From Naegleria gruberi (Eukaryota), in the NCBI GenBank assembly GCA_000004985.1, contig GG738932.1: a stretch of 64,000 bases of DNA, one strand, 5' to 3'. Both the position numbers and the translations under genes were made by a program. Below, one piece after another: positions 10,744 to 49,300 of the stretch (the stretch's first letter is position 1; each line of letters begins with the position of its first letter). The notes under the pieces were generated by a model. That model was given only the letters and a program-made list of their open reading frames with translations. It made no database searches and was not told the origin of the DNA.

Positions 10744-10816
10744 TGCTGACGGACGGGATCGAACCGGCGACCAATGGCTTATTAGACCAACGCTCTACCG
10801 ACTGAGCTACGCCAGC
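10744..10816 (-). tRNA. tRNA-Ile (anticodon AAT), 73 nt
   Basis: Reverse complement is GCTGGCGTAGCTCAGTCGGTAGAGCGTTGGTCTAATAAGCCATTGGTCGCCGGTTCGATCCCGTCCGTCAGCA. It folds as a cloverleaf with anticodon loop CTAATAA and T-loop TTCGATC, and resembles eukaryotic tRNA-Ile(AAT). Positions 27:43 (T.T) and 50:64 (C.T) are mismatched by my hand fold. A TTTT terminator lies 6 nt downstream. Confidence 0.6.
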
Positions 10817-13638: not shown

Positions 13639-16600
13639 ATGAAACAACAGCTACACGTTAATGGCCGCTTGCTGATTATTTCAGTTGTGCTGGCATTATT
13701 TCTAGTAATGACAGGTTGTGTTGCAGATATTGTGCAAGTGACACCTCAGAATCCACTGCTTGATATGATTAGTTGGAATGATAAGGATGAAATATGGTTT
13801 GCCCAATCGTGTCCTCTCACTGGATCCAACAGTCGGTAAGTTTCGAATATATTTTCTTTCCTGACTAATGGAAATAGTCTTGGAATTGAAATGAGAAATG
13901 GCATCCTTGCTGCATTCCATGAAATCAACTCTATTGGGGGTGTTTGGGGCTCAAAGAAACTCAAATTGCTCTCACTCGATGATAATTATGATCCAGTGAG
14001 CACTTTACAAAATACAAATTACTTTCTTTACAATATTACTCCACCAAATACTTCACTGAATTATGCAAATGTGTTTTCAAGTGGTAAATATGAAGATAGA
14101 AATGTCAATGATGTGAAAGTTTTTGGATTGTTAGGATATGTCGGCACGCCAACTGTCCAAGCAGTTTATTCTGATGTTGTGGCAAAGAATGTACCACTTG
14201 TAGCTTCTTTTACAGGAGTTGGTTGGTTGAGATATTCTCCATTCTATTCAAATGTCATTAATCTTAGAGCTTCCTATGATGATGAGACAGCTGCCATGAT
14301 TGACTATCTCATTAACGAAAAACTAATTAGAAGAATCTCTGTATTCTACCAAAATGACAGTTTTGGACTTGCTGGATTGAGCGGAGTCCAACGTTCCCTA
14401 GTCAACTATCTCAATATCCCTATTCGTTCCACATCTTACTATACAAGAGGAACACTAAATGTGGAAAATGCATTTCAGGAAATTGGAGCGGGAAAACCAG
14501 CTGCAATTATTTGCATTGGAACTTTTGCTCCCATTGCCAAGTTTATCAAGATGGTAAAAGATTTGGCCTTCAATTCAACTGCCAATCAATACGGTTATGA
14601 GAAACCGAGCGAAATTATTTTCATGACTTTGAGTTTCGTCAGCTCAGGAGCTCTCATTGAAAGATTAAACTCCTTCAGTTTACCTTCGAATAACTATGGC
14701 AATTCGTATTACATTGACAATGTAGTCATCACACAAGTCGTCCCCAGCCCTTTCAATCTCTCAATTCCAATAGTGAGATCCTATCAGAATGCAAGAAGAT
14801 CCTATCTACTAGCCAACGATCCATCCTCTTACAATTCCTTCACTCCCTCCTTTATAGAATTGGAAGGATACATGGCGGGAAGATTGGTTTTTTCGATATT
14901 TCAGAAAATGGTTGGAAATTTAACGAGATCCAACTTTATTGCAACGAATTATTTTGGAGGGAATAGGTTGGGAACTGATATTGGGGATTCGTCATCGACT
15001 GGTGACAGTTCAGGAGGTGTTTCACTTGTGGATGGGATTAGGGTAGGTCCGTATCGTTGGTGTGAAAGTGTCAATGTCATGGATTTGAATTTACCATATG
15101 CGGATAAGATTTCATTGAATGTTTCGGCACTTTCGAATACTACTTGTTCTAATTTTAATTGTAATCAAGGTTTGAAAGTTGTTTACAAAAGTTCAGCTCA
15201 AATTGAAAACTCTAAAATTTCATTTTCTATTTTAGGGAATAGTTTTTCATGGTATGATTACAAGGGAGGTATTTATTGCATTTCAGATCCTTCACTTGTT
15301 AAGAAACCTCTCATTTTCGGTCAATCAATCTATTCGAATAAGGACTATACTGAAGAACTAATGCTGAGAAAAGGAATTTTAATGGCCTTTACCATATATA
15401 ACCAAGGATTGTCAAGTTCTGATTCCAAATTAGAACTTTTAACACAATATCACTCAAATAAGGATGAATTAATTTCGAATACAAAGGAATTCATTGAAAC
15501 TCATGATGCACTTGCTCTGGTTGGCTATTCGACAGATCACTTTTCGTTGGTAGAAAGTAGTGGAAAGATCAATATTGCAACTAATCCACAATTTGCAAAC
15601 ATTTCCTTGATTGGAGGTGCTTCAACTATTAATTCAATGAAATTAAGAAATCCATTCACAAGGAATATCATTCACGCACATTCGTCCATTTTCGAACAAT
15701 TGGCAACGATTGTGGAATATTCAATGAATCAAGAAGCATCTTCAAGGTTTTCAATTATTTACAGTAAGAGAAATGAAGATTCATTTGCAGCTTTTGGATT
15801 ACTCAATCAAATATTGACTGCTTTGGGTTTAGTTTTAGATTCTTCTGCATGTATTGATGGTTCGAATAGTTATTCATATGCCAGTATAGATTCAATTGTT
15901 GATAGTTTGAGATATAATGGTTCTAATCCTCAAGTTGTTATATTTGCATTCCCATCAAATGTCGATGTAGTTTCGTCCTTGATTGGAGCTTTCCAAACTA
16001 CTTATCAGAATTCACCAAAATTTGGTCGAAACTTGGATATTGTTTTGATGAATTCCTTCTTTTCCCTTAATGCAGAATACGAAATGAAAGATTGGCTCGC
16101 TCAAAATTACAAGAGTTTCTTCAAAGTTTCGTTTGTTTCTCATTTAGATTCGGTTTATTCATCCTCACAACTTTCCATCGTCAAATTCATTCAAACCATG
16201 AAGAATTTCTTCCCAAACGATTATTCCAACTCAACTACCCTCTATCACAACAAAGTTTTGGAAGGATTTTATATTGGAAACTTGATTACCTCTATTCTAA
16301 TCAATATTGATTCAGGTTTGACTTCAAAGGAAGTATTGCAAACTATTTATGATGTCAAGAGTTTCATTTCTCAGCAAACGACATATGGTCCCTTCAGTGA
16401 AGATGGTTGCAATGTTGGTATTCGTCAAAATTATGTTTTCACATTCGTTTCGAATAGTTTCTCCAAAGTTTATACGAAAAGTTATGATTCAGGTTGTGGA
16501 TTATTGGCAAGCTCTGTTGAGACAGCCATCAAATCATACATTAACACGCCATTACTATTTGGATATCTAGCTCCCTATAGAAAAATTGGAAATTCTCAAA

Positions 16601-19332
16601 TTGAAAGACAATTAGACTTGTTGAGCCAGGTTTCAGATTTGGACACTTCTGGTCATACTCAATTTTCTAAGGGTCTATCCACCTATTTTAAAAAAATTAC
16701 TCAGAAATTCAATAATGGATATTCCTCTAAAAATATTCAACTTGTTATTGAATATTATAGTACTGATGAGGAGAAATTCAATCTTCCAAATAAGGTAAAT
16801 TCCTTGATTGACAAAAATAGAGTTTTTGCAATTATTGGATCAGAATTTATTTTTACTTCATCTGATATCAGTAGAGAATTTGATTCTATCAGATCCACCC
16901 TCGAAACAAAACAAATTCCTTGGATTAACAGCTATTCAGGTTCCATGGAATTGAGAAAACCGTACACTCCTTATTTTGTCAATGTTGGACCATCTGTCGT
17001 TGATCAAGCCATTTCATTCTTTAATTATTTCAAACAGAATGGAACTGTCAACTTGGCTCTTGTTTATGAAAATGATCCATTTTATACTAATATGGCAATT
17101 AGTGAAATTGTTGAATATTGTAGAATTGAATCCATTCCAATAAGTTTCACTCAGGGAGTTTATAATACATCGATAGCTGATCAAATTATTTCATTGTTTT
17201 CGAATGCAAGAATTGAGAAGGATGTGGCAATTATGGTTTTGGCAAGAGATTCGAATAGTGCTTCGATTATTAAGCATTCAATTCTTGCTGCTCAGAAATT
17301 GAACATTGATAAGAAACTCTATTTTGGTATTTTGATTGAAAATAGTGGAAGGATATTCGAACAATCTCTTGTTTCCACTTCTGACCTTTCATATTGGATT
17401 AGTTCAATTTCAGGTTCTTCCCTTTCAACTTTGTCCCAATCTGTTTTAAATGGAGTGAAAGAAGGTAAGCTAGTAATGGCTAGCTCAATGGATTCTCCAT
17501 TCCATGACTTTTCTGGTTCAGATAGCGCCTCTTTCGTCCAATTATTCAAAACCGAAACTATTTCATACTTTGATTCCAATATTAATCATTTAACATTTGA
17601 AGGTTACTCGCTTGGCCACTTTATCGATATTCTCATCACCTCCATTGAACAAGCAAAGAGTATTTCAGGTCAAACCTCAAACATTACCCCTTCAGATTTA
17701 TTGAACTCCATTTATAGTAATACCGTCTTTGATTTGAACATGAAAAAAGTTGGCCCAGTTGGATATGCCTGCTCCAATACCACAACAGCAAGTACAACTT
17801 GTGATTCTTCCACTTCCTTGGGCTGTTCCTGTAATGAAGGAGCTAAAAAAGTTGTCTTATCAACTCTAACAAGTCAACCAACTGTGAATTCTTCCGCTCT
17901 CTTCAAATATTCCAATACTATCTCAACCAATACCTTTGGAACATGTGGTTTGGTTGCTGTTGTTCCTTCTCTGTCTGTTGTTGCCATTGTCATGATTGTC
18001 CTTTCAGGTATTGCCTTCCTCCTTCTCATAACAATCATTCCAATACTTTCGTATAGATATTATGTAGCAAGAAATGCCATCAAACACGCTCCTAAATCAA
18101 AGAATGGTAAATTAGCTTGTTGCTTTACCGATATCCAAAACTCGACTGTCTTGTGGCAATCCAATGAGAAAGCCATGAGAGAAGCTTTGATCATTCACAA
18201 CCAAATTATGAGAAAGAATCTCGATCTATGTAATGGATTTGAAGTCAAGACACAGGGTGATTCATTCTTTGTGGTTTTCAAGAATCCAACTGATGCCTTA
18301 GATTGGTGTGTCTCTGTCCAACATGATTTGTTGACAGCCAAGTGGCCATCTGATTTATTGGGATTGTGGGATTGTAGACCGGAGTGGGATAATGCAACTA
18401 AGGAAATAATTTGGTCAGGAGTGAGAGTTAGAATGGGACTTCATTATGGAGCTGCGGAATATGTCTTTGATAAGGTTGTGAAAAGACCGGACTATTTCGG
18501 AACTTGTGTAAATACCTCCGCAAGAGTTGAGAGTGTGGCTATTGGTGGACAAATATTGGTTTCTGAGGATTTCTTATTGGAAACATGGAAAACAAACAAG
18601 TGCCGATTGTATTCCTTTATCAAATTCCTTCAGGGAAATAACAACTCGTACGTGAGTGAAATCATGACTGGATTGACCTTACAGGAGGAACAGAATGATA
18701 AGGACATTGTCTCAGTTGGAGGATCCAGTCATAAGAGTTCTGAATTATCGAGAAATTCCATCTCATCCAGGAATTCCTCAGTTAGCTCAGCACAAGCTTA
18801 CGATCTTTCAGATCCAAATCAAGTTACAAAGAGGAAGCGAACAAGACATGCACGTGGTTGGAGATATTTAGCTGAAGACATGGGAGAATTCACATTGAAA
18901 GGTTTGGAAGGAACAACAAGACTTTTCCAAATCAAGTCAACCATCATGGCCAAGAGAAATTATCCAGCATTGAAGAGTGTGACTGTAGCTTCATCATCTA
19001 AACCATTGTTGCTATCTCAACAAAGTGCTGCAGTTTTTGGTTTGAATGGTCAATCATCTAGCAATAGCGTGACTCAGGATAGTAAGGCATTTAGAACACT
19101 CATGACAAGAACGAATACTCAATCTTTTAGAACAGTTCCAGATCAACAGATTTATCAGAGTTATCAGGAAGATGGTATGGAGAAGGGACCACAATCAATT
19201 CCACCACAGTCTACTGTTGCAAATCCAGAAATTCCAATGGATTCAGATTTTGAAGTGTCCAGATTTAAAAAGAATAGAATTGTACCAGTAATTACAACAA
19301 CAAGTGAGAATGAGACAAATGAGGAGGAATAA
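13639..19332 (+). CDS. Receptor-type class III nucleotidyl cyclase: signal peptide, two PBP1/ANF-receptor-like ligand-binding domains, one TM helix, cyclase homology domain, Ser-rich tail (~1,880 aa, 2 exons)
   Basis: Exon 1 (13639..13835) encodes the signal peptide MKQQLHVNGRLLIISVVLALFLVMTGCVA.... A 42-nt intron gtaagt...ctgactaatggaaatag spans 13836..13877. Exon 2 (13878..19332) follows in frame. Ectodomain motifs LGIEMRNGILAAFHEINSIGGVWGSKKLKLLSLDDNYDP and a second LRKGILMAFTIYN... unit are typical of Leu/Ile/Val-binding (PBP1/ANF receptor) folds. The TM helix is LVAVVPSLSVVAIVMIVLSGIAFLLLITIIPIL. The cyclase domain immediately follows the TM and carries CCFTDIQNSTVLW, KTQGDSF, VRMGLHYGAAE, YFGTCVNTSARVES and GGQILVSE. 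There is no kinase-homology domain. Confidence 0.8.
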
Positions 19333-19377: not shown

Positions 19378-19449
19378 GGGGACCAGTGGGAATCGAACCC
19401 ACGGCCTCTCGCACCCAAAGCGAGAATCATACCACTAGACCATGGTCCC
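19378..19449 (-). tRNA. tRNA-Pro (anticodon TGG), 72 nt
   Basis: Reverse complement is GGGACCATGGTCTAGTGGTATGATTCTCGCTTTGGGTGCGAGAGGCCGTGGGTTCGATTCCCACTGGTCCCC. It is near-identical in its core to canonical eukaryotic tRNA-Pro(UGG), with anticodon loop TTTGGGT. A T-rich terminator (tttccttttaaa) lies immediately downstream. Confidence 0.8.
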
Positions 19450-19829: not shown

Positions 19830-22800
19830 TTAGAAGGCAGCAGAAACCAATACAATAATCACCATCAAGAGCATATTCATTCCAATAGAACAAGCACCAG
19901 AAACAATAGAACTTCTTGGAATGACAGTATTATTACTTGCTGAAGGTGAAATTGGAGTAGTTGAAGTGCCTGGTTCTGGAACAGTATCTTGTCCTGATCT
20001 TACTTCATTGGTTACATCAAAGAATAGAGAGGCCATCTTCAATGGATCAACATCTGGATTAGCAGAAACACCACAAGATGAAACAGAATCCCAGGTCTTA
20101 ATTTCACTTGAAGTGATATATCTGGATGTCTCTTCAGTGCCTTGATCTCCAACGAAACGAATATTATCGAGGATCATTTCTCTGTATTGTCCATTGTTGT
20201 TTAAGGAGAAGGCAAATCTACTGAATGGTTGAACTCCTTGGAATCCCAAATCAGTGAGAGGATATCTAACTCTGGTAACACGAGTGTCATCAATCTTGTA
20301 GTGTTGAATGTAGGTTGCATTGGTTGTAATACCTCTACCAATGGTAATGAAAGCCTTGGATGTAGTATTGTACCAAGCAAAGGCCAAGTTCAAATCAATG
20401 GATCCAGAGCTATTGGTTCCCTTAATGAAGAATTCAAAGTATTTGAAAATACTGGTATCCACATTGACAACTGAACCTCTGTAAAGTTGGAAACCTCCCT
20501 TCTTGAGTCCAAAGTAATAAGAAGAATTACCACAAATTGGATTGAATGGATAGGTAATGTTGGCAACGTAGTAATCAGGACTAGCTCCAGCATATGGACC
20601 ATTGGTGAATCCAGTTGACTTGAAAGTAGCTCCTTCATCATACAATGTAATAACTTCAGAAGCATTCTTGACAGTACATGGAGAAGTGATTGGAACTGCT
20701 GGTGGCAAATTACATTTACCACTACAGTACAATTGAGCTCTCAAGTGACCTGTTGGATTTTCAATACTGGAAACCTTTACGAAAATTCTTCCCTTCAACA
20801 AGTCAACCCATTCTCCATAAGACAATTGCAAACCAAATCTACTTTGAGAATATGGAGATGGAACATAGTTATAGTGATCATTCTTTCAACAGAACCAGGA
20901 GCACCGACACCAACTTCAACCAAAGTAGCCCTATTATTCATATTGTGATGGAGAACAATATCCAATAATCTGTCATTATAATTGAGGAAGGCAAAAACTG
21001 AACCAACAGCTTGGGAAGAACCAGAAGCCAATGGAGAAACAGCAGCTTGTTGACACATTTCCAAACGACCTACAAATCTATCTTCCTTCATGTAAACTCT
21101 ATAAGTTTCTCTTGGATTTGATGGAAGACTTTGGGTGGCTCCACAATAATCATTTGGACAAGTGGCTGTAACATTGATTGCAGCTGAACTACCATAATTA
21201 CCATAATCAACAAAGCCATACCATTCCTTCTTACCACTCTTGGAGTTGGTATTCTTCAACTTGATATAAAAGTGACCAGTTGTGGCATTGAAATAATAAC
21301 ATTGTGTTGGGAAGTTAATGACATCTTCCAGAGAGTCACATAAATTGAGAGTTTTTGGATCGTTACTACTTGTTACACTGAATGTAGTACCAAGTGGATA
21401 TTGAGCAACAAAAACAGCCCAATCACCAGCACCAGATGATTGCATATTCAAATTCATTGGATTTGGAGGTGGAAGATCCCAGTTAAACTTGATAGAATAG
21501 AAACCACGAGCTGGAATGTTTGCCTGCATGGCAAAGTCGCCTCCACTGGATTGGACACCTGACACTGTACCTTGAATACCTCTCAAGAGATCAGTGAGTA
21601 TTAATCTCGGAACTCTCTTTGAATTATCCTTAAAATCAGGATGTGAAACACCATTTGGATCGATAATTACTGAAGAAGAAATGTTATAATTAGTTACTCT
21701 TAATTGGAAGTATGATTCTCCCATCAATGGACAAACTGAAGCATTATTCCAGTCATATCTTGTGATACAACCTTCAAAGTTTTGAATTGGGTCAGTACCA
21801 CTAATCCAAGCACCAGCTTCTACACCAGTGATTGAACCATCGATATCCATGAGAGCAGCACCCTTGTGATTTTCATAAGTGACAGTATCCAAGAATACTC
21901 TTTGGGGCGAGTTTTCAAACTTTAAATCACAATATCTATTTCTAGTATGGAGTCTGAAGAAGTTATCAAGGACTGACAAACAACCAGCTCTCTTATACTT
22001 GTCAGTGACAAAGTTTCTGAAAGTGACATTTCTCAATAATTCAGCACCACCATTATCATAAGTTTCATAACCCTTAATAACAGTAGTGGTTGAGTAGTAA
22101 GCATTTGGTCTTGTTCTATTACCAATATCAACAGATGGTCTCAAAGTATAATCACCAACATTCTCAGATTCAGCAATCATGATAGAATCAGTAATGTATG
22201 AAGTACCAGGTGGAGAGTTCATTTGTCTCATATTATCAGTCAAGTACAAGTTTTTGAAAACAATATTACCACAACGAGCCCAAATACCATAACCTCTCAT
22301 TTTGTAAGCAGTAAAGTTATCAATTAGTGCTTCAATAGCTGGATAATAACCTGCCAATTCAGTTGTACCATCAGATTTTTCCATATCGTCAATGAATAGA
22401 CCATTTTGACCACTGTGAGCTACATTTCCTGAAAATGGCTTTGGAGGAGCAGTTCTAGGATTGATAGAACCTGGAGCATACAGGGAGGCACTTGCACCTG
22501 TTGGGAATGTTGGCATTCTAAAGTAAAATTTAAACATTAACTATGAACAAATTGTAATAACTTACGTAAACCAAAAAGAATGCTTTCCACCCATTGCATG
22601 GTTATCAACGAATGTATTGTTTGGATTAGTAATCCAAAAAACAGCAACATCACTGTCAGATGGAATTAAACGATATGCCAAATCATAAACTGGCTTTGGA
22701 CGAATTCCCAAATTATGTTTGAAAACATTTCCGACTTCAGAACCATCTTCCAAAAAGTAACAGTGACCATTGGCATTGAAGCAGACATTATCTTGAAGCA

Positions 22801-23857
22801 AGAAATAATTGGTATCGTGAACAACGTAACATCTTTGGAAAGAGTCATGAACTGAACATCCCTTGATATAATATTGAGTACCCAAAGCAGTACCTTGAGC
22901 AGTATTTTCCAAAAGGTGAAGATGGAATGAGTATCTTCCCATCAAACCATATTGACCAAACTTTCTAATTTCAATACCTTCAACTTGGAATTGAGTAACC
23001 AAACGAACCATGAAATGACCACCGAATTGAGAAGCATCAGATGAATTGTCACCTTGGAAGACAATTCTTCTAGACAATAAACCAACTTCTGGCTTGATCT
23101 TGTTACCATCGCTGTAGTGAGTGTAATTGAGTGGAGCATCCAAGACAATAGTCTTTCCGCCATCTAAAACTTGAGTAATAATACGCTCTTCATTTTGATC
23201 TGGGAATTTAACACCTCTAGCCCAACCAATTAATGAAGAAGTTACTTTGGTATAGTCAAGTAATTCACCATAATCTGAGGTAGCAATAACAATAGAATCA
23301 CCAACTCTCCAAGAAACACTTTCGCTCAACTTGATTTGATTAGAACCCTTGACAGCAGTAACAGCCAGATCAGTAAATGTTGGATAATCAACTTGACCAA
23401 AGATTTGTACCTTTGATCCAGAGAGGAAACCAATACCCTTTGAGCCCATGTTAACGTTATCAAATGGATCTGTTCCAATATCATTCTCAGTAGTACGAGC
23501 GCCATAGAATGTCAACACAATTTTGCTAGTAATTGGACATGTGGCACTTCCCATGATCCAGCTAGCGCCTGATTCCACTCTAATAAAATCAACATTCAAA
23601 GTCAAGTTGGTATTATCGAAAATTAGAGAACCACCATTCAAAACGGTTATGGAACGAAGCTTGTTTGGTGGAGATTTGTCAACCTTGACAGCTGTGCTAA
23701 TAGTAATTTGACTATCAGCAACAGAGAATCCAGTAACACTGGAAAACAATGTTAAACCTTGTGCATCTTGTGGACAATTGGTTTGACAATTTACCAAACC
23801 AACTACCAACAGGATAAAGAATACTAAACCTGTCAGTACTCGCTGCTTGTTGGACAT
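19830..23857 (-). CDS. Large secreted G8-domain plus right-handed beta-helix protein (CEMIP/TMEM2/fibrocystin-like) with Ser/Thr-rich stalk and GPI-anchor-like hydrophobic C-terminus; ~1,340 aa
   Basis: Three track ORFs belong to one gene. Exon 1 is 23857..22566 (signal peptide MSNKQRVLTGLVFFILLVVGLVNC, then a G8-like Gly-spaced block LNGGSLIF...VESGASWIMGSATCPITSKIVLTFYG, then GRYSFHLHL as in G8/PbH1 proteins). An intron at 22565..22518 (gtaagttattac...ttttactttag) splices in frame onto exon 2 starting at 22517 (...HSFWFT|MPTFPTGAS...). A +1 frame change falls somewhere in 20795..20890 before the last ~340 codons, which end SIVSGACSIGMNMLLMVIIVLVSAAF* (GPI-signal-like). Confidence 0.7.
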
Positions 23858-25254: not shown

Positions 25255-25866
25255 ATGACTGTCTATACCTTTGATGCAAACGGCCTTGCTATTCTATTGC
25301 TTGATATTGTTGAATTGTACAAAACCACAGAATCCATTCGTGACGGTTCCAAAACATATCGTTTCTTATCCATTTCGAATAGAACTAGATACATTCTGGC
25401 ATGGCTCAATATCCTTTTCACTCCTATTTTAACAATGATCTATGCAGCAGTTTCTCTACCAGTTTGCTTTTCATTACCTGCTTGTAAATCATCGACTGAA
25501 TCTGTCTCGTGCAGTGTTCGTCTTGGTTGTGCAATTGCTGGTTTTATTTGCCTGATTGCTGGCTCAACTATGTTAATCATACTTTCAGTTTATATTTTAA
25601 AACAGAATTGTGGAAATTCGTATGCTTATACAGATTTAGATTTTGTTGGAAATGTTGCAAAGATCATTACCATTTATGATGCATGTTGTTATGGAATGGT
25701 TATTTTATTTATCTTGACTTTTTTGGGGATGGTTATTGGTGGAGCTGTTGGAAATATTAACCTTTTGATTGCACTTGGTATGGCCTTATTGATTCCAATG
25801 GCATTTATTTTCTTGTATGTTGTGTGCAGAACATTGAGAAGAGCTTTATTACTTGAAAAGGAATAA
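25255..25866 (+). CDS. Small polytopic membrane protein (about 4 predicted TM helices), unknown function
   Basis: 203-aa ORF with four long hydrophobic segments and several Cys-rich loops. I recognise no family. Confidence 0.45.
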   Translation: MTVYTFDANGLAILLLDIVELYKTTESIRDGSKTYRFLSISNRTRYILAWLNILFTPILTMIYAAVSLPVCFSLPACKSSTESVSCSVRLGCAIAGFICLIAGSTMLIILSVYILKQNCGNSYAYTDLDFVGNVAKIITIYDACCYGMVILFILTFLGMVIGGAVGNINLLIALGMALLIPMAFIFLYVVCRTLRRALLLEKE

Positions 25867-25950: not shown

Positions 25951-27087
25951 TCATTTAAAAGTGTAAGAATCAGCTCTGGAAATCTCAGAAACAGTATAGC
26001 TAGTACGATCAAAGTATGGATCCATCACTGAGAAGGTCTTGCTTACCGGATCGTAACCTGTGGCCAAAACGAAATGCTCTGATTTCTTTCCAGGTGGTTT
26101 TATCAGTTTCAGAATGACCAACTTTCCTTCACATAAATTTCTTGTGGCCACCACAAGAATATCAGTTGTTCTTCCATAATATTTAACTCCAAACTTGGAA
26201 GTAATTGCTGCCCAAACGTACAAGTTCTTGTTTTGGAAACCACCATTGGTCTTCAACCATTCATTGAATTCATAGGGATTCATTTTGGTTTTTCCAATTC
26301 CATTCAATCCTGAAATAATGGATGTGATCAAACAACCTGCCTTACAAATAGTTTCACTAGAGGTTCCCAATTTGAAAGATCCCCAAGTAGAATCACATTG
26401 TTTCAATAACGGGAATTGAGATGGAATATATCCTGGTGAGCAAATATTTGGTGGAATAATTGGTGATGGTTCTGGAATAGGAGTTGGTTTTGGAGGAGGT
26501 GGAATAGGAATAATTGGAGATGGCTCTGGTTTCGGTGGAATAGGAGATGGATCAGGTGAGGGTGGAATAGGAGAGGGTTGTGGCAAAGGTGGAATAGGTG
26601 ATGGTTTTGGTTTTGGCACAATAATGACCTCACGTCTTCTTCTTCTTCCTCTTGGTATCTCCAATTCCAAATTAATATTCACACTTCCACCAGGATTGTT
26701 AGTTGTAGCAGAGGAAGATGCTGAGGAAGCAGCTCTACTTGCCTGTTGAAGAACAATAGTTTGTGGAGTTTGAGGAATTGGCACTGGAACATTCACAACT
26801 AGTTCTCTACCTGGGAAGTAACATTTACGTGAAGTTTTCTTCTTCTTTTTCCCAATAACCTTGATGATAATTTCCTTATCGTTCTTTGTTTTTTTCTTGA
26901 TAGTTTGTTTTCTTCTTCTTCTTGATGAACTTTTAAATGACCTGGCAGAGGTCAATGTAATGATCTGAACATTACTGTCTGATCTTTTTGATGATTTCGC
27001 AGCAGTAATAGCAACTACACCAAACAAACAAACCAACAAGATTCCAATAAGAAAGTTAGTTGGTTTCAGAGCAGCTGATTTGTACAT
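25951..27087 (-). CDS. Type-II-anchored or secreted protein: N-terminal TM/signal anchor, basic region, (P-S/E-P-I-P-P)n proline-rich stalk, C-terminal papain-fold Cys/His domain resembling bacterial Peptidase_C39-like (C39_2) domains
   Basis: The N-terminus is MYKSAALKPTNFLIGILLVCLFGVVAITAA. The stalk PKPKPSPIPPLPQPSPIPPSPDPSPIPPKPEPSPIIPIPPPPKPTPIPEPSPIIPP is encoded by tandem ggtggaataggagatgg-type DNA repeats at 26440..26640. The C-terminal domain has Q...C(K)AGC...TSII followed by EHFVLATGYDPVSKTFSVMDPYF, which matches the His-block H-x-V-V-x-G-Y-D...DP of C39-like peptidases. Confidence 0.55.
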   Translation of the reverse strand: MYKSAALKPTNFLIGILLVCLFGVVAITAAKSSKRSDSNVQIITLTSARSFKSSSRRRRKQTIKKKTKNDKEIIIKVIGKKKKKTSRKCYFPGRELVVNVPVPIPQTPQTIVLQQASRAASSASSSATTNNPGGSVNINLELEIPRGRRRRREVIIVPKPKPSPIPPLPQPSPIPPSPDPSPIPPKPEPSPIIPIPPPPKPTPIPEPSPIIPPNICSPGYIPSQFPLLKQCDSTWGSFKLGTSSETICKAGCLITSIISGLNGIGKTKMNPYEFNEWLKTNGGFQNKNLYVWAAITSKFGVKYYGRTTDILVVATRNLCEGKLVILKLIKPPGKKSEHFVLATGYDPVSKTFSVMDPYFDRTSYTVSEISRADSYTFK

Positions 27088-27201: not shown

Positions 27202-29715
27202 TTATTTCTCATTTGTTTCCTGTTTCAATAAAGGAACAGATTTCTGTTCAAAATATAAACTTCTGTGCACTTGTACAAGATACTGAGATGGAATGGAAGT
27301 ATCAATTATTAAAGATTCTCCACTCCTATGGATAATCAATTCTTCTCCAAAGTTCTTTTTACACTTGATAGTGAACTTGTTGATAGCTCTTGATTTGGTA
27401 CTCAATCCTCTCTTACAAATCTTTTTGAGTTTTTCAATCTTCTGTAAATAGCCAGGGGACCCTTCCACATTATCGAATAAATCAAAAGCTGTTTTACCTT
27501 GACTATTTCTAACAATGTCGAATTTCAAACCCCTTTTAATGAGTGCACTGCAAGTTAGAAAATCATCATGAATAAAGGTTTGTGCCCAATGCATGTAAGC
27601 TCTGACAATAAAGTGAGATATATCATCTCCATCTACACAGCCAAAACAATTAACATTTCGTAACTGTTGGAGTGGAGATCTTTCTAATGAAAAGTGACAA
27701 CGATTTCCGTCATAGTGGAAGAAGAGTGAGACTAATTGAGGTTGACCCTCCACATAATCAAATGCAAGAGAATTGCACTCCTGAATACTGTAATTATATA
27801 ATCTATCAATTATTTGAAACATTATTCTATACATTCCACAATCGTCCGAATATCCAACAAAATTAAATTTAGGAAAATCTTCTATTGAAGTCAATTTGTC
27901 TAATAGACTGTAGTATCCTAGTGAGGTGGTTTGTATTGGCATATTTCCATTTCTATCTTTGCATAAAACAATTTCCCTTAAACTAATGTTTAAACTAGAA
28001 AGGAAACAATTTCCAAAATAATGCACCAAATGTTTCCCATTCATATCTCTATAATTGATATCATTGAACTCTTGGTAATCATAATGTTCTGGCATTCGAT
28101 TAATAGTTGCAAATAGAATTCGCATATCTATCAGTAATCCATCTAACAAGATTACTTTTGAATAAACTTCTCCACATACTTTCTTAAACGCTTCATAATT
28201 AAAAACTTTTGAGAAATTTCCTATTATCATTTTAGTGTAACGGCTGAACGCAACCTCTTTAGGTGTAATTCCATAATTATTTGGCTCCTCACTAAGGCGA
28301 TCTATTTCAGTATCTGATAATTTTGCCAGAAATGATATTTTCTTGTAAGTGGTCGCAGTTGAAAATAAATAATAACAATGTAAAATATTATTTCCAAAGT
28401 TATCTTTGGAACTGGGATCAAAATTGTTCGTAACATGATATCTCATCATACATGGATTAATTCCAAACACGTCTCTACTATTTGGGTCCAGTTTTATCTT
28501 GCTAAATTGAAAACAATCCGAAACTAAACTAGCTGCTGATAATTGGTACTTTCCCAAATGTGACAGATCTATATTATATTCACTGCAGAAAGATATTATT
28601 TCCTCCTTATCAATAGTATTATTTAGAAATTCCTTGGTAATGTTTCTTTCAACCTTAATCTTCACAAATGGATATTTTAGAATAATATTCAAACATTGAA
28701 TAGAGTAAATAGGAATTTTGAAAATTCTGAATGTTGGATATTTCGCATGTATCTGTTGCAATAAATTCATGACCTGCTCCAAGTTTTCCTCTTTTTCTAA
28801 ATAATTCCAATTTGTAAATTCGATCTGCAAAATAAATGTAAAATATTCAATGTCAAGTTTGAAATTTTCAATTAGATAATTTGCATCTTCAAATTGCAAA
28901 CAAATAATACAGTAAAACACAAGGTTTTCTACTTTTTGAAAAGTTTTTGGGATAATATTGGCAAATTCTGTAGTTGGTATGATTTCATACTCCTGTGTGA
29001 ACCTATAGCTACGATAGCAATTACCACTCCTGTACAATCTAGGTTGTAAAACTCCATAAACAGGTAGAGTATAAACAGATACATCACTACTTTCAGGCTT
29101 AAAATCTGAATTGAAATTCAAAAAGTAATGCTTCACACTCGGCATTAATTTCATAAAATCTACTCCAAAATTTCTTACACTCGAGACATTGAAATAATTC
29201 TTTCCCATTACTGAATGAAACGAAACATATTCCACCTGACGAAGAGGTTGCTTTCCATGACAAATCTTTTTCAATTTCCACATGAATTTGGAAAACACTT
29301 GCATCCACGATTCCCTCTCATATTGTCGCAACAAATCTACAATTTTAACACATGGATGCCTCTTGAGATGTTGCACATAAACCTCATCAAGAAAATAGTT
29401 ACGTTTAATCTTGGGCGTATCAAAGATTGTAATATTCAAACTTTTCGGAAGGAAAGTCTTGATGGATTTTAAAATTGATTTACAAACTAGAAAGAGACCA
29501 ATACTTTCATGGCAAGGAGGTTTCTCCTCAAAAGCAATGAAATCATCAGAGCATAAGATTTGATCAAATTCTTCAAGAGTTTCGGGAAAGTTGATTTTTG
29601 GTACAAAGAGAAGTGGATGAGCACAAATATCACGAATGTAATCGAGGTAGGAGAAAATTTCATGATGAATTTCGGAGGGAAGATTTGAGAGTGAGGGTTT
29701 GCCTTCTTCATGCAT
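27202..29715 (-). CDS. Large F-box-like protein (837 aa), otherwise unknown
   Basis: The N-terminus LSNLPSEIHHEIFSYLDYIRDI fits the F-box consensus LPxEIlxxIfsyLd. The rest has no motif I recognise and has low-moderate complexity. Confidence 0.5.
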   Translation of the reverse strand: MHEEGKPSLSNLPSEIHHEIFSYLDYIRDICAHPLLFVPKINFPETLEEFDQILCSDDFIAFEEKPPCHESIGLFLVCKSILKSIKTFLPKSLNITIFDTPKIKRNYFLDEVYVQHLKRHPCVKIVDLLRQYERESWMQVFSKFMWKLKKICHGKQPLRQVEYVSFHSVMGKNYFNVSSVRNFGVDFMKLMPSVKHYFLNFNSDFKPESSDVSVYTLPVYGVLQPRLYRSGNCYRSYRFTQEYEIIPTTEFANIIPKTFQKVENLVFYCIICLQFEDANYLIENFKLDIEYFTFILQIEFTNWNYLEKEENLEQVMNLLQQIHAKYPTFRIFKIPIYSIQCLNIILKYPFVKIKVERNITKEFLNNTIDKEEIISFCSEYNIDLSHLGKYQLSAASLVSDCFQFSKIKLDPNSRDVFGINPCMMRYHVTNNFDPSSKDNFGNNILHCYYLFSTATTYKKISFLAKLSDTEIDRLSEEPNNYGITPKEVAFSRYTKMIIGNFSKVFNYEAFKKVCGEVYSKVILLDGLLIDMRILFATINRMPEHYDYQEFNDINYRDMNGKHLVHYFGNCFLSSLNISLREIVLCKDRNGNMPIQTTSLGYYSLLDKLTSIEDFPKFNFVGYSDDCGMYRIMFQIIDRLYNYSIQECNSLAFDYVEGQPQLVSLFFHYDGNRCHFSLERSPLQQLRNVNCFGCVDGDDISHFIVRAYMHWAQTFIHDDFLTCSALIKRGLKFDIVRNSQGKTAFDLFDNVEGSPGYLQKIEKLKKICKRGLSTKSRAINKFTIKCKKNFGEELIIHRSGESLIIDTSIPSQYLVQVHRSLYFEQKSVPLLKQETNEK

Positions 29716-30797: not shown

Positions 30798-30999
30798 TTT
30801 TTAATTTGTGCTTTATCAATTCTGGCATTTACAATTGTTTACAAGATTCCCTGTTGAATATTGATATAACTTTACAGTTTACCTGGTTTTTTCCGGTTTA
30901 CACTTGAATTTGGTCGAGACACTTTAACTTTTATATAAGATGGATACCATAAGATAGAACCTTAGATAGTCGTTGTGTATTTTATGATACATATGTATT

Positions 31000-31083
31000 C
31001 CGGTGATAGCTCAGCTGGTAGAGCATGGTACTGTAGTTGTAACAGTTCTCCCGTGGTCGGCGGTTCGAGTCCGTCTCGTCGGA
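31000..31083 (+). tRNA. tRNA-Tyr (anticodon GTA) with an ~11-nt intron 3' of the anticodon
   Basis: The 5' half CCGGTGATAGCTCAGCTGGTAGAGC..ACTGTAG matches the canonical eukaryotic tRNA-Tyr 5' half, which is CCTTCGATAGCTCAGCTGGTAGAGC in human. The T-arm is GGCGGTTCGAGTCCGTC and the acceptor is CCGGTGA/TCGTCGG+A. An inserted ttgtaacagtt (about 31037..31047) pairs with the anticodon loop (CTGT/ACAG), as pre-tRNA-Tyr introns do. A TTATTTTGGCTATTTTGG Pol III terminator follows directly. The anticodon stem has one mismatch in my hand fold. Confidence 0.6.
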
Positions 31084-32453
31084 TTATTTTGGCTATTTTG
31101 GTCAAATTGAGTTAAAAATATTAAGGATGGTTCAACACATATTTCAATCCAATTGCTGAAAATTATCCAACTTCCATCCTTATTTTTGTAAACTTTATTT
31201 AATGATAAGAAAAGGATGAAGAAGTTTATCATTATCTATGGCAATTCCTTTTATTGATTCTCCGAGAAGGAATATTCCAAAACAACAGCATATCTCAATT
31301 TCATGTATTTTTCAGATTCGAATCTTTGTATACAAAGATTTCATTCCAAATCACCGGTGATGAGATTTTTTCGAACCACTACAGTTTTATTGTAATCACA
31401 GTAGATCAAAACTGTAGATCAAGTTTAGGTGATTGTATAATTTGATCAGAGTCAATTTAGGAAAACTTGTAATATGAATAAGAAGAAATTAAACGAATGG
31501 TGGCGAAACATACTTTTAAGAACCTGTAAGGCCTCCATATGGTTAGATCATCTAACTTGTAGATTTTGCTTCCTGTTGTTTCGAATCGTCCAATGTAATT
31601 CGTTCAGAATAGTCTAAAACAAATTCTAAATTGGTAATATTCCACATCCGAAGATTTTACATAGAATGGAACAATATCACAACAATCAACTCATCTTGAA
31701 GTAATTTACCCTTTTCGATCAATCGTTACATTTTCGAATAGTGCCATTGCTGTTTCTAATAGTTTAATTTCATGTACTTCTATGTATTTTTTAATCGGTC
31801 AAGGAATACATTTCACGATCATCCTCAATCTCCAAATTTCATCAATTCTGTACATTGTCCTTTCCAACAAAGTTTCGAATGGCATTATCGAACGAAAGAA
31901 AAAATTTTGAAATCTCCATTGAAATCCTGAAAGAGAAACTTTCTACATTCGAAAAGTTGCCACCTCACACTTCTATCCTCAAATCATGTATTCAAAATTG
32001 CATCCTTTTCATTAAATTCTAAACCAGACGAAACCATTCCCTCAAATCCTACTCAATTATACAAAACGAAATCGTTTCAGTCAACCAACTCTACTCTCCT
32101 TTTCAAGATCTTTCCAATTCTCCAAAACCAGCATCACAGGTTCATTTCAATTTTGTTCATTTTACAATTTATCAAATTTTCCCAAAAACCTTCCAGTCAG
32201 GCCTCTAAATAGTTGAAAACATTTTTCTGCATCTAGCTGTATCCACTTCCAATCTCGTCCAATCGCTCCTTTTTCATCCAAGAGTCCAAACATTACTGTC
32301 GCACTGGTTTTTTTCGTTACACCGCTTTTTATTTGTACTATGGTGATTCTCGAATATACTAGCTGATTCTCCATAACATTCATGAACAATGACATGAATA
32401 TACGAGCTAGAGTAGTGAGGGAATGGAGGAATGCATAAGAAGACAACAACACC

Positions 32454-45127: not shown

Positions 45128-45359
45128 NNNNNNNNNNNNNNNNNNNNNNNNNNNNNNNNNNNNNNNNNNNNNNNNNNGATCACATCAACTTTTTATGACC
45201 CAGTGAATTTGTCAATTGGGCACAAATTCGTGGAGCTGTCCAAACAGAAACTAAAGAAACAGCAAAGCCTATTCCAGTTGTGTGATCTTTCCACATGATC
45301 TCAGTTCATAATAGACACAAGAAAACACAATGCTAATAATAAAAATATAATTTTATTTA

Positions 45360-46250: not shown

Positions 46251-46342
46251 TTTTTAGGTCTTCATTAAGTTGATCAGGTGAAACGGTTTCAAGATGCTTT
46301 CTTCTCTCACCCAAAGAAGTGATGGTGTTGAAAATAGCATCA

Positions 46343-49300
46343 NNNNNNNNNNNNNNNNNNNNNNNNNNNNNNNNNNNNNNNNNNNNNNNNNNNNNNNNNN
46401 NNNNNNNNNNNNNNNNNNNNNNNNNNNNNNNNNNNNNNNNNNNNNNNNNNNNNNNNNNNNNNNNNNNNNNNNNNNNNNNNNNNNNNNNNNNNNNNNNNNN
46501 NNNNNNNNNNNNNNNNNNNNNNNNNNNNNNNNNNNNNNNNNNNNNNNNNNNNNNNNNNNNNNNNNNNNNNNNNNNNNNNNNNNNNNNNNNNNNNNNNNNN
46601 NNNNNNNNNNNNNNNNNNNNNNNNNNNNNNNNNNNNNNNNNNNNNNNNNNNNNNNNNNNNNNNNNNNNNNNNNNNNNNNNNNNNNNNNNNNNNNNNNNNN
46701 NNNNNNNNNNNNNNNNNNNNNNNNNNNNNNNNNNNNNNNNNNNNNNNNNNNNNNNNNNNNNNNNNNNNNNNNNNNNNNNNNNNNNNNNNNNNNNNNNNNN
46801 NNNNNNNNNNNNNNNNNNNNNNNNNNNNNNNNNNNNNNNNNNNNNNNNNNNNNNNNNNNNNNNNNNNNNNNNNNNNNNNNNNNNNNNNNNNNNNNNNNNN
46901 NNNNNNNNNNNNNNNNNNNNNNNNNNNNNNNNNNNNNNNNNNNNNNNNNNNNNNNNNNNNNNNNNNNNNNNNNNNNNNNNNNNNNNNNNNNNNNNNNNNN
47001 NNNNNNNNNNNNNNNNNNNNNNNNNNNNNNNNNNNNNNNNNNNNNNNNNNNNNNNNNNNNNNNNNNNNNNNNNNNNNNNNNNNNNNNNNNNNNNNNNNNN
47101 NNNNNNNNNNNNNNNNNNNNNNNNNNNNNNNNNNNNNNNNNNNNNNNNNNNNNNNNNNNNNNNNNNNNNNNNNNNNNNNNNNNNNNNNNNNNNNNNNNNN
47201 NNNNNNNNNNNNNNNNNNNNNNNNNNNNNNNNNNNNNNNNNNNNNNNNNNNNNNNNNNNNNNNNNNNNNNNNNNNNNNNNNNNNNNNNNNNNNNNNNNNN
47301 NNNNNNNNNNNNNNNNNNNNNNNNNNNNNNNNNNNNNNNNNNNNNNNNNNNNNNNNNNNNNNNNNNNNNNNNNNNNNNNNNNNNNNNNNNNNNNNNNNNN
47401 NNNNNNNNNNNNNNNNNNNNNNNNNNNNNNNNNNNNNNNNNNNNNNNNNNNNNNNNNNNNNNNNNNNNNNNNNNNNNNNNNNNNNNNNNNNNNNNNNNNN
47501 NNNNNNNNNNNNNNNNNNNNNNNNNNNNNNNNNNNNNNNNNNNNNNNNNNNNNNNNNNNNNNNNNNNNNNNNNNNNNNNNNNNNNNNNNNNNNNNNNNNN
47601 NNNNNNNNNNNNNNNNNNNNNNNNNNNNNNNNNNNNNNNNNNNNNNNNNNNNNNNNNNNNNNNNNNNNNNNNNNNNNNNNNNNNNNNNNNNNNNNNNNNN
47701 NNNNNNNNNNNNNNNNNNNNNNNNNNNNNNNNNNNNNNNNNNNNNNNNNNNNNNNNNNNNNNNNNNNNNNNNNNNNNNNNNNNNNNNNNNNNNNNNNNNN
47801 NNNNNNNNNNNNNNNNNNNNNNNNNNNNNNNNNNNNNNNNNNNNNNNNNNNNNNNNNNNNNNNNNNNNNNNNNNNNNNNNNNNNNNNNNNNNNNNNNNNN
47901 NNNNNNNNNNNNNNNNNNNNNNNNNNNNNNNNNNNNNNNNNNNNNNNNNNNNNNNNNNNNNNNNNNNNNNNNNNNNNNNNNNNNNNNNNNNNNNNNNNNN
48001 NNNNNNNNNNNNNNNNNNNNNNNNNNNNNNNNNNNNNNNNNNNNNNNNNNNNNNNNNNNNNNNNNNNNNNNNNNNNNNNNNNNNNNNNNNNNNNNNNNNN
48101 NNNNNNNNNNNNNNNNNNNNNNNNNNNNNNNNNNNNNNNNNNNNNNNNNNNNNNNNNNNNNNNNNNNNNNNNNNNNNNNNNNNNNNNNNNNNNNNNNNNN
48201 NNNNNNNNNNNNNNNNNNNNNNNNNNNNNNNNNNNNNNNNNNNNNNNNNNNNNNNNNNNNNNNNNNNNNNNNNNNNNNNNNNNNNNNNNNNNNNNNNNNN
48301 NNNNNNNNNNNNNNNNNNNNNNNNNNNNNNNNNNNNNNNNNNNNNNNNNNNNNNNNNNNNNNNNNNNNNNNNNNNNNNNNNNNNNNNNNNNNNNNNNNNN
48401 NNNNNNNNNNNNNNNNNNNNNNNNNNNNNNNNNNNNNNNNNNNNNNNNNNNNNNNNNNNNNNNNNNNNNNNNNNNNNNNNNNNNNNNNNNNNNNNNNNNN
48501 NNNNNNNNNNNNNNNNNNNNNNNNNNNNNNNNNNNNNNNNNNNNNNNNNNNNNNNNNNNNNNNNNNNNNNNNNNNNNNNNNNNNNNNNNNNNNNNNNNNN
48601 NNNNNNNNNNNNNNNNNNNNNNNNNNNNNNNNNNNNNNNNNNNNNNNNNNNNNNNNNNNNNNNNNNNNNNNNNNNNNNNNNNNNNNNNNNNNNNNNNNNN
48701 NNNNNNNNNNNNNNNNNNNNNNNNNNNNNNNNNNNNNNNNNNNNNNNNNNNNNNNNNNNNNNNNNNNNNNNNNNNNNNNNNNNNNNNNNNNNNNNNNNNN
48801 NNNNNNNNNNNNNNNNNNNNNNNNNNNNNNNNNNNNNNNNNNNNNNNNNNNNNNNNNNNNNNNNNNNNNNNNNNNNNNNNNNNNNNNNNNNNNNNNNNNN
48901 NNNNNNNNNNNNNNNNNNNNNNNNNNNNNNNNNNNNNNNNNNNNNNNNNNNNNNNNNNNNNNNNNNNNNNNNNNNNNNNNNNNNNNNNNNNNNNNNNNNN
49001 NNNNNNNNNNNNNNNNNNNNNNNNNNNNNNNNNNNNNNNNNNNNNNNNNNNNNNNNNNNNNNNNNNNNNNNNNNNNNNNNNNNNNNNNNNNNNNNNNNNN
49101 NNNNNNNNNNNNNNNNNNNNNNNNNNNNNNNNNNNNNNNNNNNNNNNNNNNNNNNNNNNNNNNNNNNNNNNNNNNNNNNNNNNNNNNNNNNNNNNNNNNN
49201 NNNNNNNNNNNNNNNNNNNNNNNNNNNNNNNNNNNNNNNNNNNNNNNNNNNNNNNNNNNNNNNNNNNNNNNNNNNNNNNNNNNNNNNNNNNNNNNNNNNN

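Follow-up and report, generated by a model that had tools for sequence, protein, structure and literature searches.

A catalogued Peptidase_C39_2 protein of Naegleria gruberi, predicted to be a secretory-pathway cysteine hydrolase, and its unstudied eukaryotic relatives

The 64,000-nucleotide stretch of Naegleria gruberi DNA analysed here (the window; contig GG738932.1 of assembly GCA_000004985.1) contains a gene for a protein with a hydrophobic N-terminus, a basic low-complexity region, a proline-rich stalk and a C-terminal domain of the Peptidase_C39_2 family. The protein was found to be an ordinary, catalogued member of this known family, belonging to an old, widespread and unstudied eukaryotic branch, with an N-terminal architecture that is unusual. 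From its sequence it is predicted to be a secretory-pathway cysteine hydrolase of clan CA with a papain fold, and we put at about even the chances that it hydrolyses peptide bonds of peptidoglycan, as an endopeptidase or amidase, within the phagosome or on the cell surface, a function suggested by association.

The gene is a single uninterrupted open reading frame (ORF) with an ATG start and 378 codons plus stop, on the minus strand at exactly 25951..27087, and every element given for it in a preliminary description of the window (Cys and His blocks, a signal segment and a proline-rich stalk) was present. The 378-residue product matches N. gruberi XP_002669102.1 (EFC36358.1, UniProt D2W3M1) with 100% identity over 100% of its length, a public entry (NAEGRDRAFT_75991) described as "predicted protein" with the PF13529 label already precomputed. 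The suggestion that this might be a new eukaryotic surface enzyme thus did not hold, as both the protein and its Pfam domain were already in public databases and the homologue in Naegleria fowleri had already been named.

The assignment to the C39-like or C39_2 family proposed in that description was borne out when the Pfam hidden Markov model (HMM) check was run, with PF13529 (Peptidase_C39_2) matching residues 224-358 at E=1.1e-15 and 58.9 bits (gathering cut-off 24) across profile positions 2-143 of 143. No other significant family was found in the Pfam scan of the query, where a DapH_N row (E 0.13) lay under its cut-off, and the query had no HMM match to NlpC/P60, CHAP or transglutaminase-like domains, the wall hydrolase families of CL0125. 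Searches of the PDB with the plain sequence or with a eukaryote-only profile gave nothing significant; a profile mixed from eukaryotes and bacteria reached 3ERV (E 7.3e-6), with the GC, EH and DP motifs of the two lining up, and a Foldseek search agreed on the set of structural neighbours. The AlphaFold2 (AF2) model of the domain was confident, with the nucleophile helix at domain residues 39-50, and, as in clan CA, the nucleophile Cys stands at the N-terminus of a helix in a domain that resembles clan members structurally.

The Cys block ICKAGCLITSII occupies residues 247-258 and the His block EHFVLATGYDPVSKTFSVMDPYF residues 337-359. Across 83 diverse relatives, G251 was invariant (83/83), Q230 and C252 were almost so (82/83 and 81/83), and H338 and D356 were each conserved in 80/80, a set that corresponds, judged by alignment, to the active-site pattern Gln/Cys/His/Asp of C39-type enzymes. 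The nucleophile is presumed to be C252, the second Cys of the Cys block, since it is near-invariant whereas C248 is missing from 11/83 relatives. The expectation that the Cys and His would align to catalytic positions therefore held for the Cys, the His and an Asp, but with C252, not the first block Cys (C248), as the nucleophile. Cys231 and Cys248 covaried perfectly in the same 83 relatives (both present in 72, neither in 11, a single one in 0), from which we infer a disulfide between the loop carrying Gln230 and the helix of the nucleophile. This Cys pair was considered as a mark specific to the eukaryotic subfamily and rejected as such, being also present in an Anaerolineaceae protein (L007). 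In the catalytic mechanism that we propose, Cys252 would act as nucleophile with His338 as general base, oriented by Asp356, while Gln230 would supply the oxyanion hole and the Cys231-Cys248 disulfide would pin the loop that carries Gln230 to the helix of the nucleophile.

Entry into the secretory pathway is supported by the hydrophobic N-terminus, by the signal peptides of relatives and by the covariation of Cys231 and Cys248. A short basic n-region (residues 1-11) precedes the sole hydrophobic segment of the protein, FLIGILLVCLFGVVAITAA (19 residues, 12-30), for which the Kyte-Doolittle 19-residue mean was 2.8 (maximum at residue 12). The full-length single-sequence AF2 model (predicted local distance difference test score, pLDDT, 41) was informative only for an N-terminal helix at residues 9-31, at moderate confidence. 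The homologues from N. fowleri, Naegleria lovaniensis and Willaertia begin with ordinary signal peptides. The hydrophobic segment would direct the protein into the endoplasmic reticulum, and the catalytic domain would then face the lumen, that is, the interior of the phagosome or lysosome, or the cell exterior. The domain follows a hydrophobic secretion signal at the N-terminus and a proline-rich linker, and it is plausible that the protein acts, as had been put forward, as a hydrolase or amidase that is secreted or exposed at the surface.

Residues 31-155 are of low complexity and strongly basic, with 31 K/R, a pI of 11.7 and four multibasic tracts (RRRRK56, KKK64, KKKKK80 and RRRRR148). No homologue was detected for this region, which gave no Pfam match and no predicted fold (pLDDT <50), and relatives align to the query only from about residue 220 on. 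The region may bind anionic bacterial envelopes, in place of the SH3b module of relatives; alternatively, it may be a pro-region that is cut off at the multibasic sites.

Display of the domain on a stalk anchored in the membrane, as previously described, is plausible from the sequence. The 19-residue hydrophobic segment on which that description relied is real, but it also fits a signal peptide cleaved after TAA30. An alternative topology with the same catalysis would accordingly have the signal peptide cleaved, the basic propeptide removed at multibasic sites (e.g. after RRRRR152), and the stalk and domain released in soluble form. We give this alternative a little less than an even chance: T28-A29-A30 obeys the -3/-1 rule and is followed by K31, much as SEA is followed by K at the N. 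fowleri site (SEA/K), the homologues are plainly soluble and secreted (81 of 149 representatives have <50 residues ahead of the domain), and the four multibasic tracts might be used for processing; against it stands the very high hydrophobicity of the 19-residue h-region, a feature seen more often in signal anchors.

The stalk itself (residues 156-213) contains 31 Pro in 58 residues (53%), with the motif PSPI[PI]P occurring five times at a spacing of mostly 9 residues. Being stiff, this polyproline-rich linker of 58 residues would hold the catalytic domain off the membrane or off the rest of the protein. Pro-rich linkers ahead of the domain were rare among relatives (3 of 97 with >=25% Pro, e.g. 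P0053), that of N. gruberi being the most extreme. A periodic DNA repeat had been reported beneath the stalk, and the period of 27 is real but the repeat is imperfect: Tandem Repeats Finder (TRF) gave 3.7 copies with 75% matches (score 104) at 26512-26612, and a second repeat search gave 4-5 copies within 26453-26611 with a copy identity of 63-91%. The G+C content at third codon positions (GC3) of the stalk was 0.10, its Pro codons being nearly all CCA/CCT. The prediction that the repeat is prone to length variation found no support, given the low identity between DNA copies and the equal stalk length in a second allele, the one comparison made; this allele (P0015, found in an ENA assembly and grouped with the query in one 90% cluster) was 99% identical with five substitutions, and its sole length difference was one Arg less in the RRRR tract.

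The case for peptidoglycan as substrate combines the partner domains of the family, its structural neighbours, its listing in catalogues of lysins, the secretory route in an amoeba that lives by eating bacteria, and a precedent from Trichomonas. SH3b, LysM and GH25 domains are standard modules for binding and cutting the bacterial wall, and scanning of the 83 relatives gave SH3_3 in 15, SH3_4 in 4, SH3_16 in 1, LysM in 1 and GH25 lysozyme in 2. Other architectures included a GH25 lysozyme joined to C39_2 (P0023) and tandem double C39_2 domains (P0018, P0029 and P0035), tandem arrangements being present in 22 of 149 representatives. The top solved structural neighbour cuts a cross-link of the archaeal wall, and the best viral structural matches, at TM (template modelling) scores of 0.6-0.7, were phage tail lysins, from phage proteins with the labels tape-measure, phi29-type "morphogenesis protein 1 ... 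hydrolase", peptidase and cyanophage lysozyme. Peptidase_C39_2 has been listed among the enzymatically active domains of phage lysins (PMC8223927; bioRxiv 10.64898/2026.04.25.720813), the N5 domain of mycobacteriophage LysA matches 3ERV (PMC3314691), and laterally acquired papain-fold NlpC/P60 enzymes of Trichomonas vaginalis are active peptidoglycan DL-endopeptidases (PMC6299479). The substrate of the Naegleria enzyme would be the peptide moiety of bacterial peptidoglycan, attacked by a stem-peptide or cross-link endopeptidase or by an amidase, and the enzyme would help this bacterivorous amoeba to kill or digest its prey.

Several observations weigh on the other side. The query lacked SH3b, LysM or any other cell-wall-binding domain in the Pfam scan. 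The literature searched gave no report of any Peptidase_C39_2 member biochemically shown to cleave peptidoglycan, nor a demonstrated substrate for any PF13529 member, and searches on the accession numbers of the query, and on Naegleria or amoeba together with C39, found nothing relevant. A 2023 classification of papain-like enzymes leaves the function of PF13529 open and notes bacterial transporter neighbourhoods (PMC10318531). There was no direct sequence match by tblastn against 50,697 phage records or in PHROGs or PADLOC, and no meaningful match in NCBIfam, so that the query is not close to a catalogued phage lysin or defence protein. The structural neighbours, finally, also include true proteases (staphopains and C39 leader peptidases) and a glutathione-cleaving enzyme.

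The proteases among these neighbours provide the analogy for the main rival function, that of a true protease with protein or peptide substrates rather than cell wall, which would either serve digestion or processing in the phagolysosome or mature other secreted Naegleria proteins. We consider this unlikely, as the query gave no match to the bacteriocin-processing peptidase family PF03412 at E<=10, no ABC transporter domain was found in the query protein or among the neighbouring ORFs scanned, the partner domains of the family are cell-wall binders or lysozyme rather than protease-associated modules, and the solved and viral structures closest to it are wall-lytic enzymes. Still less probable is a phytochelatin-synthase-like or BtrH-like acyl-transferase or hydrolase of gamma-glutamyl peptides or other small molecules: no Pfam match to Phytochelatin (PF05023) was found in the query, and a secreted location and cell-wall-binding partner domains are ill-suited to glutathione metabolism.

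To place the domain among its relatives, similarity was judged from the domain alone and from a profile, the first full-length homology search having returned 3 matches only, swamped by proline-rich words. When 1.84 billion cluster representatives were searched exhaustively with HMMER, 1122 relatives passed E<=1e-3 and 186 of them E<=1e-10. The closest named relatives were heterolobosean, at 43-48% identity; the range for the most similar proteins, likewise heterolobosean, was 43-50%, with bacteria reaching at most 36%. The proteins of N. lovaniensis (XP_044551175.1, 47% identity) and Willaertia magna (KAL9646478.1, 44%) consist of signal peptide, SH3b and C39_2, that of Percolomonas sp. WS (37%) of SH3b and C39_2, and that of N. 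fowleri (XP_044558433.1, 43%; UniProt name "Peptidase C39-like domain-containing protein") of signal peptide and domain only. The query has in common with this group the catalytic domain (37-48% identity) and the KQCD..W and TIC..GCL motifs, and it, too, would enter the secretory pathway, but where these relatives have a signal peptide, SH3b and a Gly/Ser linker (in N. fowleri the signal peptide only), it has a long hydrophobic segment, a polybasic region and a Pro stalk; its branch in the tree is long.

Hundreds of further relatives were metagenome proteins of about 200 residues with the layout signal peptide plus domain. Three of these were looked up and found on long contigs with sparse and fragmented gene calls, and two of the three contigs had genes of eukaryotes on them, namely MCU, a V-ATPase subunit a split over several pieces, and fragments of protein kinases. 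The contigs are intron-rich eukaryotic DNA. The subfamily is large and, in the data that could be placed, mostly eukaryotic. A scan for signature-peptide motifs of the subfamily in one genome for each of 185,579 prokaryotic species gave no relative, and a looser motif scan gave 20 loci in metagenome-assembled genomes (MAGs) of Anaerolineae/Chloroflexota and Cloacimonadota, with a domain identity of 27-36%.

The nearest bacterial relative examined (L007, 2347-4809 on the plus strand, Anaerolineaceae MAG UBA2260) is an 820-residue multi-domain protein with C39_2 in its middle, which keeps the eukaryotic-type QC...VCxxGC cysteine pair; a second, weakly related protein of 738 residues (E 4e-4) is encoded directly upstream of it. 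A "C39 family peptidase [Bdellovibrionales bacterium]" (P0177/L006; GCA_020434865.1, JAGQZZ010000288.1, 226-801) was rejected as a close bacterial homologue, since its 3-kb contig with a gene-free stretch of about 1.8 kb and its tree position among sequences from eukaryotic contigs indicate that it is probably mis-binned eukaryotic DNA.

Comparison with neighbouring genes and a phylogeny had both been proposed as checks on the origin of the gene. The former was clear, with a GC3 of 0.274 within the neighbours' range of 0.21-0.37. The neighbour-joining tree grouped the query with its heterolobosean relatives and separated it from most of the bacterial proteins, but the domain is short and bootstrap support was 6/100; the tree was treated as unresolved, and conclusions on origin rest on similarity ranking, composition and genomic context. 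The peptidase gene is an integrated and compositionally ordinary Naegleria gene, flanked by eukaryotic ORFs (an mRNA capping enzyme, a receptor-type adenylate/guanylate cyclase, G8/CEMIP and an NHL propeller). The idea that the gene came recently from bacteria by horizontal transfer, or is bacterial contamination of the assembly, draws some plausibility from a Pfam family best known from bacteria and phages and from the relatives in Anaerolineae and Cloacimonadota, but is very improbable, and excluded as far as these data go, in the face of the eukaryotic flanking genes, the neighbour-like GC3, the greater similarity of heterolobosean proteins and the empty subfamily-motif scan of prokaryotic genomes. 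The earlier view of a mostly bacterial domain, possibly acquired by horizontal transfer, is thus not upheld. With heterolobosean proteins as closest relatives, eukaryotic contigs, weak bacterial identity and ordinary GC3, any bacterial origin would be old, before the divergence of these heteroloboseans, and not specific to the query gene.

Taken together, these data allow a broader reading, which we offer tentatively and regard as rather doubtful in its entirety. An essentially unstudied family of eukaryotes (several hundred or more clusters at 50% identity, from Heterolobosea and many freshwater eukaryotic metagenome contigs) would consist of secreted C39_2 enzymes, anciently derived from wall hydrolases of Chloroflexota-type bacteria, that cleave peptidoglycan as digestive or antibacterial effectors. 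In the N. gruberi form, tethered to the membrane and with a polybasic segment in place of SH3b, the active site would be held out toward captured bacteria, away from the phagosomal or plasma membrane, by the rigid polyproline stalk. Lysozymes and pore-forming peptides are the known antibacterial tools of amoebae and, to our knowledge, the breakdown of the peptide cross-links of bacterial walls by free-living amoebae is poorly documented; this broader reading, if true, would provide a protist counterpart of lysozyme for the peptide part of the wall. If the family were one of peptidoglycan peptidases or amidases, a widespread antibacterial and digestive enzyme class would be added to protist biology, one that is represented also in the pathogen N. 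fowleri; this would be the second case, after Trichomonas NlpC/P60, of papain-fold wall hydrolases of bacterial ancestry in eukaryotes, and the first functional assignment for Peptidase_C39_2 beyond the catalogues of phage lysins. At present the gene, its entry automatically annotated, is a lead for biochemistry and not a discovery; what stays of interest is the hypothesis, at the level of the family, of a protist peptidoglycan peptidase, together with the unusual tethered architecture.

Table 1. Features of the peptidase gene, in window coordinates.
Feature	Position	Strand	Basis
Complete single-exon gene NAEGRDRAFT_75991	25951..27087	-	ORF list; 100% match to NCBI/UniRef protein
Peptidase_C39_2 papain-fold catalytic domain, residues 214-378	25954..26448	-	
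Asp356 codon, presumed third triad member	26020..26022	-	D in 80/80 relatives; aligned to 3ERV DP
His338 codon, presumed general base	26074..26076	-	H in 80/80 relatives; aligned to 3ERV EH
Cys252 codon, presumed catalytic nucleophile, GC252L motif	26332..26334	-	C in 81/83 relatives, G251 invariant; aligned to 3ERV GC
Cys231 to Cys248 span, inferred disulfide	26344..26397	-	Co-occurrence in 83 relatives
Gln230 codon, presumed oxyanion-hole residue, beside Cys231	26398..26400	-	Q in 82/83 relatives
Proline-rich linker ("stalk"), residues 156-213, coded by imperfect 27-nt tandem repeat	26449..26622	-	TRF, composition
Lineage-specific basic low-complexity region, residues 31-155	26623..26997	-	Composition, pLDDT, no Pfam match
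Hydrophobic segment, residues 12-30, FLIGILLVCLFGVVAITAA: signal anchor or signal-peptide h-region, possible cleavage after TAA30	26998..27054	-	Kyte-Doolittle 19-residue mean, helix model

The window, a part of the nuclear assembly of N. gruberi, holds real sequence up to position 46342 (about 46.3 kb), with an assembly gap of 50 N at 45128-45177 and N padding from 46343 to 64000. Next to the peptidase gene and convergent with it, a plus-strand ORF of 203 residues (25255-25866) encodes a very hydrophobic, apparently multi-pass membrane protein that gave no Pfam match; 84 bp separate the two stop codons. Directly upstream of the peptidase gene and on the same strand, an ORF of 837 residues (27202-29715) had no Pfam match at E<=1e-3, and its N-terminus (LPSEIHHEIFSYLD) is F-box-like by eye only. 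Further away, the receptor-type cyclase ORF (1813 residues, 13891-19332, plus strand) combines two ligand-binding regions resembling periplasmic-binding-protein/ANF-receptor domains with an adenylate/guanylate cyclase catalytic domain. Two minus-strand ORFs about 25 bp apart (20795-23857), one of 431 residues (G8 plus CEMIP beta-helix) and one of 580 residues (weak match to CEMIP domain X), resemble a single CEMIP/TMEM2-like gene interrupted by a short intron or a frameshift. Three tRNA genes were also found, for Ile(AAT) at 10744-10816 (minus strand), Pro(TGG) at 19378-19449 (minus strand) and Tyr(GTA) at 30999-31084 (plus strand), the last, at 86 nt, being consistent with the intron-containing tRNA-Tyr of eukaryotes.

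Compared with known systems, the solved PF13529 protein 3ERV is a putative C39-like peptidase of Bacillus anthracis to which no function has been assigned, and the Naegleria protein differs from it and from PF13529 in being eukaryotic and in its extra covarying Cys pair, its 58-residue polyproline-rich linker, its polybasic region and its possible membrane anchor. The canonical C39 domains of ABC transporters such as PCAT1 and ComA belong to PF03412; in contrast to these, the query has neither the ABC fusion nor a match to that family, and carries extra structural decorations. The pseudomurein endoisopeptidases PeiR, PeiW and PeiP (MEROPS C71, PF12386) act on archaeal pseudomurein and are only 17% identical to the query, which gave no HMM match to PF12386. 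The NlpC/P60 enzymes of Trichomonas belong to a different family from C39_2, and their activity is proven where that of the query is predicted, but they too are protist enzymes of bacterial descent, built on the papain-like fold of clan CA; their relatives are fused to bacterial SH3 domains, and the same use against bacteria has been proposed for them (PMC6299479).

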